DNA from: Escherichia coli
GTDB lineage: Bacteria > Pseudomonadota > Gammaproteobacteria > Enterobacterales > Enterobacteriaceae
Strand: one strand, 5' to 3'
Length of the DNA stretch: 64,000 nt
Assembly (NCBI RefSeq): GCF_016026235.1
Contig: NZ_CP065613.1
The position numbers are program-made. Position 1 is the stretch's first letter. Each line of letters starts with the position of its first letter. Of the stretch, positions 45,001 through 51,000 are shown one piece after another.

Positions 45001-48000
45001 GCGGAAACAGTCTCAATATGAAAACACTTCTGAGACTCGCTATATAGCAGAACATATAAGTCAGCTGAGGAAGCCATGAAAAAGTTCGAAAACATAACTG
45101 TTCTCCATGTTGATGACTTTGATTATACAAACCCGGAACTTCTCCCGGAGGTTGTAAAGGCAATAGATGTTGCCGATATAGTGATTAGAGGAAAGAGAAT
45201 TGTCAAAAACAGGCTCGCATGTACTTCAGGAGCAATGACAGAAACAACCTCACAGCAAGATGATTGGAGCCTGATTCATTTGCGGTAAATGTTTATCATT
45301 TATTGCATGCAACACAGGTGTTACATACGTCCAGTAATAACGAAACAAAAACACTTGGCAGTGAAATTCTGAATTTTGCATGTGAATATGCAAAAACCGC
45401 TGTTGAAAAAGAATTAGCGCAATAACAACAAATATGCCCTGAACGTTTATTGCGGTTTTATCGCCGGGGATTGTTACAACCTTAATCCACAGGAGGCTTT
45501 ATTATGACTTTTATAAAGAATATGGCATCACACAAGACCGCCAGCCTTATTGCACAATACGGTGAAAATTACATGCATATTGCCTGCTTATTTCTGCGTA
45601 AAGCATACGGGAAATAACAAATGACACATGAACCCATTAATACATATCGTCGCCGTATAGCTGTTGCGGCACTCCATCGAATAAAACGTAAAACAGGTAG
45701 TGATCTGCTTATTGTTGACCTTCTGGATGGGAACATTACGACCATAGAAATAACAGAACAGTTTATAAACCAGTTGCTGTTGCGCTTTGAAGGTATTACC
45801 CGTGGTGAATTGGGTCGAGTGGAGGGTGAAACAGAAATCCGAACTGCATACCAGAATGCTATCGGGATTAATCAACATACTGAATACCAGGCTGAAACCG
45901 GAAAGTTAATTATAGACAACCTTTTACAAGAGGTTATTGATTACGCGAAAGAAAAATATATCAGCGGAGGAATTAACTGATGGCTAATTTATCCCCTGTA
46001 TCTGTTGTGCACGAAAAAGTGCAGATCGTTATGACAATTGAAAATGGCCAGGTAACAGATGTCTGCAAAGTCCGCGATGGAGAGCTGATTGCCAGCATGG
46101 ATACATTCATACGGCTGGCAGAAAGAGCGGGGTATCAGATAACAGCACCTGCTCAGGAGGAAACCAGTGACATTAACAGCAACACGAATTCCTGAGTGGG
46201 TCCACCAGCAGGCGTTGCTGGTCCTGCGGCGGTACAGATGCCGACGTATATTCCCGCATCGGATACAGCGCAACGGATATCTCAGTCTGAAGGTTAACCG
46301 TCGCTGGCGGCTGTTATCGAAAGACGACGGCCGGAACTGGGAAGTAATGAGTCATGAACGTTATTCGGGGGAAATAAAGAAATGATCGACAACCGCACCG
46401 CCAGCGCCATTGACCAGGCATTACAGAAACATGATACACCCGTCGGCCCGTTATTTTTTGTAACACGCCACGAAAGAACAAAAAATGCCTCACCCGAAAA
46501 ACGGCAATTCGTTACCTGGCATTCTTTATGACCACCCGCGCTTTTGAACGTTCAGGATTCCGACAACGCCATCCTGACAAGCGTTTTATCTTCAACGGGA
46601 ATGAGATATGGAAACGTGGAGAATCAACCACAGAGTATACCCGCGCACACCAGCGAACAATCAGACGACTGCGCAGACTCATCGCCAGGAAACAGTATAC
46701 AGAAAAATGGTTCAGAAAATATGACACATGGAGCGCCGGATATTACGAACTGATGGCAACAAAACCATTCTGACGTAAACGAAATTAACCATGACGCAAT
46801 TAAATAAGGCAAGCCGAATACATCAGGAGGACCATGAACATTTATTTCAGAATAGTTATATCACTGGCAATTATCGCATGTATTTACGGATTAATCGTTC
46901 CGGCCCTCATATCAATGAAGGATACGGTAGCAGTGATTTCTGGCTTTGCTCTGGCGTGTCTGACCCCGCCCTGCATTTATGCCATTTATAAGGGTCTTTC
47001 TTTCCCCAGGAGGGAAAAATGAAAAAAACAATTGCGCTTGTTTTCGCGGTCAGTCTGGCTGTCTTCGGACTTGTAGGTTGCGATCGCGTTGAACCAGGTA
47101 ATGTGGGTATCAAAGTCAACAAACTGGGCGACGACAAAGGTGTCGGTGAAGTGGTCGGTGTTGGTCGCTACTGGACTGGCTGGAATACTGAAGTTTACAT
47201 TTTCCCGACCTTCAAGCAAATGAAGACCTACGATGAACCGTTCAGTTTCCAGATGAGTGACGGCACAACCATCGGCTATCACATCGGCGTGGCCTACAAA
47301 GTTGATCCATCCAAAGTTACCACGGTGTTTCAGACTTACCGCAAAGGCGTGGATGACATTACCAACACCGACCTGCGCCAGAAGATCGCCGACGCACTCA
47401 ATCGGCTGGCCAGCAAAATGACCACCGACAAATTTATTGACGGCGGCAAGTCTGAACTACTGGATGCCGCACTTAAAGACATTCAGGAAGAGATGACACC
47501 CATCGGCATTCAGGTAATGAGCCTCTCTTATGTAGGTAAACCGGAATACCCTCCAACCGTTATCGACAGCATTAACGCCAAAGTCACGGCAAACCAGAAA
47601 ACCCTGCAGCGCGAACAGGAAGTCAAGCAACGTGAAGCGGAGGCCAACATGCTACGTGCGGAAGCTGCCGGACAGGCTGATGCCATTCGAACAAAAGCCC
47701 AGGCAGAAGCCGATGCCATTCGTTTACGCGGCGAAGCTCTACGCCAGAACCCAGGCGTCATGGAGCTGGAAGCCATCAACAAGTGGAACGGTACACTGCC
47801 GCAATACATGACCAGTGGTGTGAGGTAGCCTGAGTTTAACGGACACTCCTTCCTGAAATAGAATGGCATCAGAAGGAGCTAATAATGAGCAGAAAAACCC
47901 AACGTTACTCTAAAGAGTTCAAAGCCGAAGCTGTCAGAACGGTTCTTGAAAATCAACTTTCGATCAGTGAAGGCGCTTCCCGATTATCTCTTCCTGAAGG

Positions 48001-51000
48001 CACTTTAGGACAATGGGTTACCGCCGCCAGAAAAGGGCTCGGTACTCCTGGTTCCCGCACGGTGGCTGAACTGGAATCTGAAATTCTGCAACTGCGTAAG
48101 GCGTTAAATGAAGCTCGCCTTGAGCGAGATATATTAAAAAAAGCAACAGCGTATTTTGCACAGGAGTCGCTGAAAAATACGCGTTAATCGAACAATGGCG
48201 ACAACAATTTCCCATTGAAGCGATGTGTCAGGTATTTGGTGTATCCAGGAGCGGTTATTACAACTGGGTACAGCATGAACCCTCAGACAGAAAACAAAGT
48301 GATGAGCGGCTAAAACTGGAGATTAAGGTGGCACATATCCGCACTCGCGAAACATATGGAACCCGGCGGCTCCAGACGGAGCTGGCAGAGAATGGCATCA
48401 TCGTTGGTCGTGACCGACTGGCACGTCTTCGTAAGGAGCTAAGGCTACGCTGTAAGCAGAAACGCAAGTTCAGAGCGACTACGAACCCGAACCACAATCT
48501 GCCAGTTGCGCCAAATCTGCTGAACCAGACGTTCGCTCCTACAGCACCAAATCAGGTCTGGGTGGCGGACCTGACGTATGTTGCCACACAGGAGGGATGG
48601 TTGTACCTCGCTGGCATCAAAGATGTTTATACGTGCGAAATTGTCGGCTACGCCATGGGAGAGCGCATGACAAAAGAGCTGACAGGTAAAGCCCTGTTTA
48701 TGGCGCTCAGGAGCCAGCGCCCACCTGCCGGGCTAATCCACCACTCTGATCGAGGTTCACAGTACTGCGCATACGATTACCGGGTCATACAGGAGCAGTC
48801 TGGTCTGAAAACATCAATGTCGCGTAAAGGTAACTGTTACGACAACGCTCCGATGGAAAGCTTCTGGGGAACGCTGAAAAATGAGAGCCTGAGCCACTAT
48901 CGTTTTAATAACCGGGATGAAGCCATCTCAGTAATACGGGAATACATTGAGATTTTCTACAATCGTCAGCGTCGTCACTCTCGTCTGGGGAATATCTCCC
49001 CGGCAGCCTTCAGGGAAAAATATCATCAGATGGCTGCTTAAAAAAAGAACAAATGGTAGTGTCCGCTATTGCCAGTACACCTCAGTGCCAATACACCATT
49101 TATCCAGATTAAATAACTTATATGCCCGGCAGGCCGCCGGGCTAAGGGAAATGCAGATGAACACCCAGAATACTCAACCGCAAATAATGAACTATGACCC
49201 GAATCTGACGTCATGCGGACGCATGGCAAAACAAACCGTTCGATTAACTTTCGGACTATGGGAATACCGCGAAACATTCGAAGTTACTGTCGGCGGCAAT
49301 CTGACCGGACTGGATGTTATCAGTTGCGCTATTGAAAGCCTGTACGCAACGCTGCCTTATGAAGAAGTCGAGGATGAGCGAACAGGGGAAACAGATATCA
49401 TGGCCACCATTAATATTGGCGAACTGATATGTCAGGATGAAGACCTGTCCGGAGAGCTCTGGCTTGCCGGGATGCTTATCTCAGCAGAAATTATCAGTAT
49501 TGAACCCGCTACAAACATACGGCTCTGAAGTTCTCACTATTCAGAGAGCAGGAGAAAAAATGTTCGCTTTGATTAATCAGGGACAACTGTATACCGACAG
49601 TGCCGGTTACCCGGTAAAAATTATTCGCTGCATAAACAACACTGTGTTGTACAGAAGAATGGATGGGCGAACACAGTCAGTAAAAATAAACGATTTCAAT
49701 GAACTGTTTGAACGGATCGATCACCAGGAATACCGACAAATTCTGGCAGAAACAGAGCAGGAAGCTCATCTGAAAAAATTACGGGCCATGAAAAGGAAGT
49801 AAAGAATGAATAAAGCGTTTGAGCTATGGGTACGCCAGCGTTACGGCAATCGCTATGACCTGACGCGAGATGTTGACGGTTTCTACTGTCGTGAAATTGT
49901 GAAACGAATGTTTGAAGTGTGGTGCCACTGCCGTGGGCTGAGTGTTGTGTGAGGTAATGCATGGGCAATGTGATTCAACTGGCTCCCAATGAATGGGTTT
50001 GTGAAAGCGTTCTTATCGCAATTACCGGGCTCAAACCAGGCACAATTCTCCGAGCCCGGAAAGAATGCTGGATGGTAGGAAGAGAGTATATTCACGTATC
50101 ACCAGACGGTAATCCAAAGCCATCCAGCGAATGTATGTATAACAGAAAAGCAATAGATGCCTGGGTCTCTTCAATGAAAAACAAACAACCTGGGTGATTT
50201 AATGCCATGAAGTATGTAAGCTCGTATCGCTCTTGGGCGTCTGGAGGTATCAATGGATAAAGTCAAATATCCAACAGGCGTCGAAAACCACGGTGGCACA
50301 TTACGCATCTGGTTTAATTTTAAAGGTAAACGTGTCAGGGAAAATCTTGGTGTCCCTGACACTGCCAAGAACAGGAAGATCGCCGGAGAGCTGCGGACAT
50401 CTGTATGTTTTGCCATTCGTACAGGAAATTTTGATTATGCTGCGCAGTTCCCTGACTCTCCTAACCTCAAGGCTTTTGGGGTAAATAAAAAAGAAATTAC
50501 GGTGAAAGAACTTGAAGAAAAATGGCTGGATCTGAAACGAATGGAAATCTCTGCAAATGCATTCAATCGCTATGAATCCATTGCAAGGATGATGGTTCCG
50601 AAGATTGGTGGCAACCGACTGGTATCAGCAGTGACCAAAGAGGAATTGCTGTATATCAGGAAAGATTTGCTGACCGGATACCAAAATCCAACAAAAGGTA
50701 AAGCTCCAGTAAAAGGACGAAGCGTTGTCACAGTAAATTATTACATGACAACAATCGCTGGAATGTTTCAGTTTGCTGCAGATCACGGTTACATAGAAGC
50801 AAATCCCTTCGAGGGAATTAAGCCTCTTAAAAGAGCCAGGGCAGAACCAGATCCGCTAACTCGTGACGAATTTATTCGCCTGATAGATGCTTGCCGGCAT
50901 CAGCAGACAAAAAACCTGTGGTCATTGGCTGTGTACACAGGAATGCGTCATGGTGAACTGGTCTCCCTGGCCTGGGAAGATATCGATCTGAAAGCAGGAA

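Follow-up and report, generated by a model that had tools for sequence, protein, structure and literature searches.

A hairpin and SPFH lipoprotein gene pair in an Escherichia coli prophage: a candidate periplasmic membrane module interrupted by IS600

Among the early genes of a lambdoid prophage of Escherichia coli lies a pair of overlapping genes, the first encoding a 62 amino acid protein with two transmembrane (TM) helices and the second a lipoprotein of the SPFH superfamily, in which the insertion sequence IS600 has displaced the extreme 3′ end of the second gene. This locus raises the question of what such a pair does for the phages that carry it, and whether the interrupted copy can still do so. 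The pair, together with the inserted element, occupies positions 46834-49116 of a 64,000 nucleotide stretch of contig NZ_CP065613.1 (RefSeq assembly GCF_016026235.1), hereafter called the window. We favour, with moderate confidence, the interpretation that the two genes encode a self-contained membrane module, comprising a predicted periplasmic cage of the prohibitin/HflKC type and its hairpin partner, that this module is carried as accessory cargo, and that the copy in the window has been disabled. SPFH scaffolds, including prohibitin, stomatin, flotillin and HflK/C, form membrane cages, and the job performed by most bacterial members is still to be explained.

The SPFH lipoprotein and its hairpin partner

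The upstream open reading frame (ORF) of the pair (46834..47022, + strand) is preceded by a Shine-Dalgarno-like AGGAGG (46825..46830, +), located 3 nt 5′ of its start. A second such sequence, AGGAGGG (47008..47014, +), lies within the end of this ORF in a position to serve the SPFH gene. As had been reported in the first-pass annotation, the two ORFs overlap by the tetranucleotide ATGA (47019-47022), an arrangement which indicates that their translation would be coupled. As it stands, the SPFH ORF extends over 47019..47828 (+) and encodes 269 amino acids, while its native part, made up of codons 1-267 and the first base of codon 268, ends at 47820 (47019..47820, +).

The translated product of the SPFH gene matches the Pfam family Band_7 (PF01145) over residues 23-209 (Bitscore: 108.2 against a cut-off of 23.6; e-value: 6e-31), as well as phrog_200 (e-value: 1e-114), the profile of which includes an N-terminal extension of about 80 positions. 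An AlphaFold2 model, derived from an alignment of 50 diverse sequences (mean predicted local distance difference test score, pLDDT: 89), consists of an SPFH alpha/beta domain, a wall helix of 65 residues (179-243) and a cap helix (245-255), followed by a floppy C-terminal tail of low confidence. The segment rich in Ala, Glu and Gln, which had been described at first pass as a long coiled coil, corresponds to the wall helix and is predicted as a single long helix with pLDDT values above 90. When the model was compared against the PDB with Foldseek, the top matches were the prohibitin complex, HflK/C, erlin and stomatin (e-values: 1e-14 to 1e-11), with flotillin also being recovered (probability: 1.00 for each of the five), while a sequence profile search of the PDB returned prohibitin-1 (e-value: 6e-10), HflK (5e-8) and QmcA (9e-7). 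By sequence and predicted fold the lipoprotein is closest to prohibitin and HflK/C, and its earlier assignment to the SPFH superfamily is borne out by Pfam, the AlphaFold2 model and Foldseek alike. All structure models considered here are monomer predictions, and features of the cage are deduced from homology and from the conserved terminal strand discussed below.

The closest solved relatives, prohibitin and HflK, act on the same side of the membrane as that predicted for the phage protein, and both partner FtsH-type proteases. It could be argued on these grounds that the phage protein imitates the HflKC cage that surrounds FtsH in the host, or inserts itself into it, and shifts the turnover of FtsH substrates such as a cII-like activator, cIII or Xis, biasing the decision between lysis and lysogeny. 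The protein is, however, not an orthologue of HflK or HflC, as it scores far under the cut-offs of the NCBIfam equivalogs for hflC (25.5 bits against 134.4) and hflK (22.8 bits against 159.4), and a single SPFH gene, rather than a pair of paralogues of the HflK/HflC type, is present in all the loci inspected. No protease-domain match was found for the SPFH protein in the profile and similarity searches run. The label "serine protease", which the gene bears in several phage records, is unsupported and probably wrong, and may have been carried over from annotations like "membrane protease subunit, stomatin/prohibitin homologue".

The N-terminus of the SPFH protein, MKKTIALVFAVSLAVFGLVGC|DR, represents a lipoprotein signal peptide (47019..47081, +) with the lipobox LVGC, which fits the pattern [LVI][ASTVI][GAS]C and ends in Cys21 (47079-47081), a residue that is nearly invariant across the family. 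Among 120 close enterobacterial homologues examined, the sequence Cys-Asp-Arg (C|DR) is present in all 92 for which the motif could be located. In the Enterobacteriaceae, an Asp residue at position +2 is the classical signal for retention of a lipoprotein in the inner membrane through avoidance of the Lol system. The lipoprotein probably faces the periplasm and stays at the inner membrane, because Asp occurs at +2 in a lipobox context and because members of the family exist in which the SPFH domain is fused to three TM helices. In the model of one such fusion protein (P0158; pLDDT: 90), helices 6-31, 36-56 and 60-75 run directly into the SPFH domain, and these three consecutive helices require such fused members to be seated in the inner membrane, their SPFH domain lying on its outer side.

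Several observations weigh against this placement. The Arg residue at +3 may weaken retention in the inner membrane, the +2 residue is mostly Ser or Thr in other lineages, and the argument for retention draws on the general +2 Asp rule for the Enterobacteriaceae. Furthermore, a Pasteurella multocida protein, PM0222, which is described as prophage-encoded and HflK/C-like and may be related to the present family, is reported to be released in outer-membrane vesicles, to activate Toll-like receptor (TLR) 1/2 and to add to virulence in mice (PMC9872710). With this precedent, and with the lineage of the window allele occurring in human-associated E. coli and Shigella genomes, the SPFH protein might instead be a surface or vesicle lipoprotein of lysogenic conversion that acts on the animal host. 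Against this stand the Asp at +2 and the fused three-TM forms, which indicate the inner membrane, and the wide occurrence of the family in environmental and virulent phages without an animal host, and we regard such a role as very improbable.

The 62 amino acid partner consists of two hydrophobic helices separated by a very short polar turn, with basic residues at both ends, and is predicted to adopt an N-in/C-in topology with a tight periplasmic turn at P23-A-L-I-S27-M-K-D-T. The turn motif of the family is P-x-[LMF]-[ILV]-S-[AS]-x-[SDN], represented in the window by PALISMKD. When 37 fused or paired sequences are aligned, Pro23 and Ser27 show no variation; in the homologue from a Burkholderia phage, the turn Ser is replaced by Asn. 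The protein matches phrog_1130 (e-value: 7e-24), a family filed under moron and host takeover. No Pfam match at an e-value of 1 or below was obtained either for the 62 amino acid protein or for the N-terminal domains of seven fusion proteins. The first-pass annotation had likened the pair to the NfeD-SPFH operons of cellular genomes, a comparison that stands for gene organization and fails for homology: the hairpin protein lacks a match to NfeD (PF01957), and 62 residues are too few to hold two TM helices and the oligonucleotide/oligosaccharide-binding (OB) fold, the soluble domain by which NfeD is defined. We consider the hairpin to be a distinct, unclassified family of TM hairpins that partners lipoprotein SPFH proteins. 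The small upstream ORF is often uncalled, being unannotated in the records of phiP27 (L001, 4006-4194), a P1-like element (L003, 3730-3966) and a Stx2/PPompW phage (L246, about 5005-5193).

Conservation, genomic contexts and mosaic exchange of the pair

To establish how constant the pairing is, 84 related loci, comprising 80 enterobacterial viral contigs and four annotated records, were inspected for a small hydrophobic ORF ending at the start of the SPFH gene. Such an ORF, with a similar overlap geometry, lies upstream of the SPFH gene in 83 of them, and the single exception is situated at a contig end, where only 210 bp of upstream sequence are available. Either a separate upstream hairpin gene or a fusion is present in 63 of 80 diverse environmental viral contigs, and a hairpin likewise accompanies the SPFH domain in 54 of 80 cellular loci (51 paired and three fused), from Dyella, Leptospira, Sutterella, Bacteroidota and others. 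A HMMER scan of 1.84 billion representative sequences recovered 3007 SPFH relatives at e-values of 1e-3 or below. Among the best 150 representatives at 50% identity, 16 are natural fusions in which the hairpin is followed by a third hydrophobic helix ending in the lipobox Cys and then by the SPFH domain. On this comparative sequence evidence, the hairpin-SPFH pairing is a conserved module, both real and ancient. One further protein (P0162; 344 amino acids) carries a hairpin-like segment, with the motif VPTLISSSAT and two hydrophobic helices, at the C-terminus of the SPFH domain in place of the terminal strand, and represents either a fusion in reverse order or a read-through artefact.

Many other phages carry the pair in intact form, and it is neither absent from them nor always degraded. 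Relatives were identified by tblastn in 712 of 50,697 phage records (1.4%), including those of Staphylococcus Kayvirus, Pseudomonas, Enterococcus, Erwinia, Klebsiella, Burkholderia, Caulobacter, crAss-like, Lak and haloarchaeal viruses, and members of the family also occur in viral contigs as large as about 370 kb. The enterobacterial allele was found by megablast in 509 of 5426 complete E. coli genomes (about 9%), with 172 of the places being on plasmids.

The genomic contexts of the pair are diverse. In lambdoid phages it forms part of the repressor-controlled leftward operon, in the P2-like phage P88 it is located between cox and a replication gene, and P1-like elements carry it between dmt and ban, while in large environmental phages it is found on the same strand among genes for ribonucleotide reductase, ThyX, dCMP deaminase and PhoH. 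Clustering of the neighbours in 80 viral loci revealed no conserved third gene or protease partner, with no family occurring in more than nine loci; the commonest were the same four nucleotide-metabolism and PhoH families. No FtsH-related gene recurs in the viral and cellular neighbourhoods inspected. The loci inspected in Dyella, Leptospira and Bacteroidota have ordinary chromosomal neighbours (BlaR1/BlaI-like, hemerythrin, succinate dehydrogenase and peptidase). In three Dyella chromosomes (L095, 3003-5460; L107, 2848-5423; L117, 2833-5329), the pair adjoins ORFs of about 675-717 and about 135-142 amino acids. In L095 these encode a BlaR1-type M56 membrane peptidase and a BlaI-type repressor, while those of L107 and L117 were matched by size alone, and none of the inspected loci of Leptospira or Bacteroidota has neighbours of this type. 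The membrane peptidase merits attention in that SPFH proteins often partner membrane proteases.

The position of the gene can be read in favour of the FtsH modulation outlined above, an idea already raised at first pass, as the pair sits in the early-left operon near xis and int, and the corresponding operon of phage lambda harbors cIII. HflK-like control of lysogeny has, furthermore, been speculated upon for Pseudomonas phages, although obligately lytic members are also reported to encode an SPFH/HflK-like protein (PMC8540360). The frequency of the family in large environmental viral contigs, beside genes of nucleotide metabolism, is likewise at odds with such a function, as is the presence of the pair in chromosomal, non-phage contexts with no recurrent FtsH-related neighbour. 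Since the family is carried by temperate and virulent phages as well as by non-phage chromosomes, an FtsH role specific to lysogeny is unlikely to be its general role, and we judge modulation of FtsH to be an unlikely explanation for the pair.

Comparison of the enterobacterial alleles provides further information on how the pair moves. The mature SPFH proteins of lambdoid, P2-like and P1-like phages are 95-98% identical, whereas their signal peptides share only 42-62% identity and their hairpins, of 62 amino acids in lambdoid phages, 67 in the P2-like P88 and 78 in the P1-like phage-plasmids, are mutually only 26-31% identical. A mosaic breakpoint is located inside the operon, with DNA identity to P88 (L002) and to the P1-like element (L003) beginning near codon 18 of the SPFH gene. 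We interpret this pattern as exchange of the hairpin and signal peptide as a unit, with the mature SPFH protein being kept, and the distribution identifies the pair as accessory cargo of lambdoid, P2-like and P1-like phages.

A pair that passes as accessory cargo from one temperate phage to another, unrelated one, and whose hairpin is placed by phrog_1130 among morons and host takeover genes, could serve the prophage as a dedicated anti-phage function, through either a block to DNA entry at the inner membrane (superinfection exclusion) or abortive infection by membrane depolarization. Small inner-membrane proteins are classic exclusion factors, as exemplified by T4 Imm and P22 SieA. Neither protein, however, has a match among the 5027 models of PADLOC-DB 2.0.0, where the SPFH protein returned only LmuB at an e-value of 0.25 and the hairpin returned none, and the pair is conserved in the non-phage chromosomes of Dyella and Leptospira. 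Moreover, no promoter or terminator of its own rises above background in the window, a GC-rich hairpin past the stop codon (about 49124-49142) not being significant (z = -1.2). There is as such no promoter- or terminator-like site to separate the pair from the repressor-controlled early-left operon, and expression in a repressed lysogen is therefore not indicated. An anti-phage function dedicated to the prophage state thus appears improbable to us.

The size and N-in/C-in topology of the hairpin, with its two TM helices and charged C-terminus, also recall class II holins, and the endolysin gene lysK of Staphylococcus Kayvirus is directly followed by mbpS, the SPFH gene, and a small membrane gene. 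The hairpin could on this basis be a holin-like or otherwise toxic small membrane protein that is sequestered, or its action timed, by the SPFH cage, so that the pair would constitute a gated pore. The Kayvirus partner, MbpV, is nevertheless a protein with one TM helix that is not homologous to the hairpin, and the pair lies away from the lysis genes in lambdoid, P2-like and P1-like phages and in environmental contigs. Natural fusions in a 1:1 ratio and conservation in non-phage chromosomes fit a structural subunit better than a toxin, and we give the gated pore very little credence. Identification of the hairpin as a class II holin or pinholin was likewise rejected: its topology is compatible with one, yet its neighbours are early-left genes, xis and int or genes of nucleotide metabolism.

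The IS600 insertion and the surrounding prophage

The element that interrupts the SPFH gene, the second of three IS600 copies in the window, is 1264 bp in length (47821..49084, +) and has the features of an IS600 element of the IS3 family (about 1.26 kb, terminal inverted repeats and two ORFs), the ORFs being orfA (47885-48187, +; 100 amino acids) and orfB (48223-49041, +; 272 amino acids). Its ends read TGAGGTAG... and ...ACACCTCA, it is flanked by a 3-bp target-site duplication, GTG (47818..47820 and 49085..49087), and in related genomes the element is annotated as an IS600-family transposase. Removal of IS600 and one GTG copy restores the C-terminus ...TSG-ANTPFIQIK, or ...TSGANTPFIQIK, followed by the stop codon. 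The restored SPFH protein comprises 276 amino acids and matches, at 100% identity, the public full-length protein P0001, which belongs to a cluster of 1366 sequences. The first-pass description, according to which the last nine codons (ANTPFIQIK) have been exchanged for Val, Arg and a stop, is therefore exact. These substitute codons (47820-47828, +) are supplied by IS600, while the displaced 3′ end of the gene, made up of the last two bases of codon 268 (Ala), the codons for N-T-P-F-I-Q-I-K and the native stop, is found on the far side of the element (49088..49116, +).

It had been supposed at first pass that, with only nine codons affected, the protein may still be made. Synthesis is indeed probable, while the damage was understated, as a conserved terminal strand is lost. 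Across the family alignment, the C-terminal region contains the motif K-W-[DN]-G-x-L-P, in which Trp256 and Gly258 are invariant and Pro261 nearly so, followed by a short linker and a strand of the type P-[FLMI]-[IVL]-x-[IVL]. Close homologues end in ...TPFIQVK or a similar sequence. Among 128 family representatives that reach the Trp residue, the tail that follows it measures at least 17 residues (5th percentile: 19), whereas that of the window allele measures 13, of which the final Val-Arg is foreign. In the 2.2 Å structure of stomatin, the wall helix and cap helix are followed by a terminal strand which builds a cap beta-barrel between subunits and is central to oligomerization, and the C-terminal strand acts as an oligomerizing beta-barrel likewise in flotillin and HflK/C (PMC12344292). 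The nine lost residues are the conserved terminal strand, by homology the equivalent of that in the cap barrel, and not dispensable padding. The truncated SPFH protein is probably made and lipidated, yet unable to close a cage. The module in the window is probably crippled, because IS600 has taken its terminal strand and because the prophage is decaying. As a natural C-terminal truncation, the window allele offers a built-in negative control for cage closure.

The IS600-interrupted SPFH allele is found in at least five public assemblies. In one of these the integrase comprises 437 amino acids, whereas in the window (50253-51425, +) and in another assembly it comprises 390, having been cut by a further IS600, so that the insertion into the SPFH gene must have preceded that into the integrase gene, and the prophage has since decayed further. 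The integrase is cut by the third IS600 copy at ...SQMGHAS, about 40 codons short of its normal end, and probably lacks the catalytic tyrosine; the prophage is therefore likely to be locked in. The three IS600 copies in the window (36754-38017, 47821-49084 and 51413-52676) share 99.8-100% identity, and together with the truncated integrase they mark the prophage as decaying. In some related viral contigs of the Shigella/enteroinvasive E. coli type (L005 and L008, about 3783-4004), the hairpin ORF encodes 73 amino acids, with an N-terminal extension of 11 residues (MVVSAIASTPH-MNIYF...) that matches a reading of the right end of IS600, ...GGTAGTGTCCGCTATTGCCAGTACACCTCA in the window. In these contigs the start of the hairpin ORF is probably adjoined by the right end of an IS600 element, in which case IS600 has struck this small region more than once.

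The order of genes on the + strand is a CI-like repressor (43610-44341), a helix-turn-helix (HTH) regulator (44444-44893), small phage ORFs, the hairpin-SPFH pair, an ORF of the domain of unknown function (DUF) type, an excisionase (49961-50197) and the integrase, from which the location given at first pass, the early-left region of a lambdoid prophage, is correct. Two of the small ORFs 5′ of the pair (46167-46385 and 45980-46195) have precomputed Pfam hits to ParE_like (PF24732) and, weakly, to Rem, and may form a pair of their own within this operon, either toxin-like or regulatory. No RNA genes were identified near the hairpin-SPFH pair in an Rfam search. Elsewhere within the prophage, the same search located a C4 antisense RNA (83 bits) beside isrK (64 bits) at 41008-41195 (- strand). 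Further Rfam matches in the window are STnc100 (33705-33894) and a tRNA (34058-34130), as well as ES036 (55832-55874) and MicL (59811-60118), which lie beyond the truncated integrase and the third IS600 copy.

Proposed membrane role and comparison with known systems

In the two-gene membrane module that we favour, the lipoprotein would, after export, acquire its lipid at Cys21 and remain on the periplasmic side of the inner membrane. Oligomerization there, by means of the wall helix, the cap helix and the C-terminal strand, would yield a closed cage of the prohibitin/HflKC type. The hairpin would form a transmembrane palisade beneath the rim of the cage, and in the fused forms it would pack with the signal-anchor helix as a three-helix bundle. 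Such a cage would fence off a patch of the inner membrane. With low confidence, we propose that in an infected cell it lends the inner membrane stability or insulation, possibly protecting it against envelope stress, premature depolarization or the entry of superinfecting DNA, rather than controlling lysogeny. The placement of the pair in early operons or among genes of nucleotide metabolism, with no isolating promoter, suggests that it is expressed at an early stage of the lytic cycle and not from a repressed prophage, and its occurrence in virulent phages suggests a job that these also need. A general membrane role is accordingly ranked, again with low confidence, above both a lysogeny-specific FtsH role and classical prophage defence.

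Some considerations count against this proposal. The cage, its stoichiometry and the contact with the hairpin all derive from homology. Hairpins are swapped while the SPFH protein stays nearly constant, so that any specific contact between the two must use very few residues or the co-transferred signal peptide. The truncated protein of the window might, in addition, still form open or partial rings. No experiment on any member of the family was found in the literature searched, where phage genome papers grade the role as unclear or poorly understood.

A more far-reaching possibility, which we hold to be doubtful, is that the hairpin and lipoprotein-SPFH pairs constitute an unrecognised class of SPFH systems, spread mainly by phages, in which prohibitin-like periplasmic cages made early in infection wall off patches of the inner membrane. 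Such cages might, for example, block superinfecting DNA, blunt the membrane-acting effectors of host defences or capture a host membrane protease. If this were true, it would provide a tractable phenotype for a bacterial SPFH scaffold.

Among known phage proteins, T4 Imm and Sp, P22 SieA and HK97 gp15 are comparable in being small inner-membrane proteins, expressed early or from the prophage, that act at the envelope. They differ in that no sequence relationship to the pair was detected in the Pfam, PADLOC and PHROG searches, and none of them is known to act together with an SPFH scaffold. Further parallels are mbpS of Kayvirus, the SPFH gene of the Kuttervirus PhiSH19 and gp113/gp114 of Burkholderia phage Maja, which share the C-terminal K-W-x-G...P motif and an overlapping small membrane gene upstream. 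The SPFH proteins of PhiSH19 and Maja are of the lipoprotein type, while MbpS has an N-terminal anchor and possibly a lipobox. Maja gp114 is genuinely homologous to the hairpin, with PWLIN at the turn. In contrast, Kayvirus MbpV (L252, 1193-2292), which overlaps the start of mbpS, has one TM helix and a charged tail, and the partner in PhiSH19 (L254, 641-1650) is an unannotated ORF of 72 amino acids with two TM helices around a long basic loop, which overlaps the SPFH start; neither is homologous to the hairpin. These non-homologous partners suggest that SPFH proteins may generally need a small membrane companion, a need that has been answered more than once. The "superinfection exclusion protein" encoded beside the PhiSH19 SPFH gene was rejected as a partner, as it is an acidic soluble protein.

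The phage protein resembles the human stomatin 16-mer cage in its wall helix, its cap helix and a hydrophobic strand beside a proline (...IVFPLPI in stomatin; ...TPFIQIK here). Stomatin is, however, cytoplasmic and carries a hairpin anchor in the same chain, and the two proteins share 15% identity in the Foldseek alignment.

The pair further resembles the SPFH-NfeD operons (QmcA-YbbJ, PH1511-PH1510, YqiK-YqiJ and FloT-NfeD2), in which the SPFH gene has a small membrane gene beside it in the same orientation, a pattern of co-transcribed neighbours that has been reviewed (PMC2636767). The cryo-electron microscopy structure of QmcA-YbbJ (PDB 8z5g) is among the Foldseek matches, and in both kinds of operon the membrane partner and the SPFH scaffold probably form one complex. 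The phage pair departs from the NfeD operons in that its partner comprises nothing beyond a TM hairpin, with a P-x-L-I-S turn and no OB-fold domain. The SPFH domain of QmcA is cytoplasmic, while that of the phage protein is predicted on the periplasmic side.

The closest likeness is to HflK/HflC-FtsH and mitochondrial prohibitin, with which the phage protein shares the SPFH domain, long wall helix, cap helix and C-terminal strand, as well as a domain predicted to face the periplasm, or in mitochondria the intermembrane space, from an N-terminal inner-membrane anchor. Unlike HflK/HflC, it is encoded by a single SPFH gene, has a lipid anchor in place of a TM helix in the unfused forms and possesses a dedicated hairpin partner with two TM helices. 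We suggest that the pair represents a known superfamily in a new configuration, not found described in the literature searched, which combines a lipid anchor, the periplasmic side of the membrane, a non-NfeD hairpin partner and natural fusions. As such, it offers a common and compact two-gene system amenable to expression and testing in E. coli.

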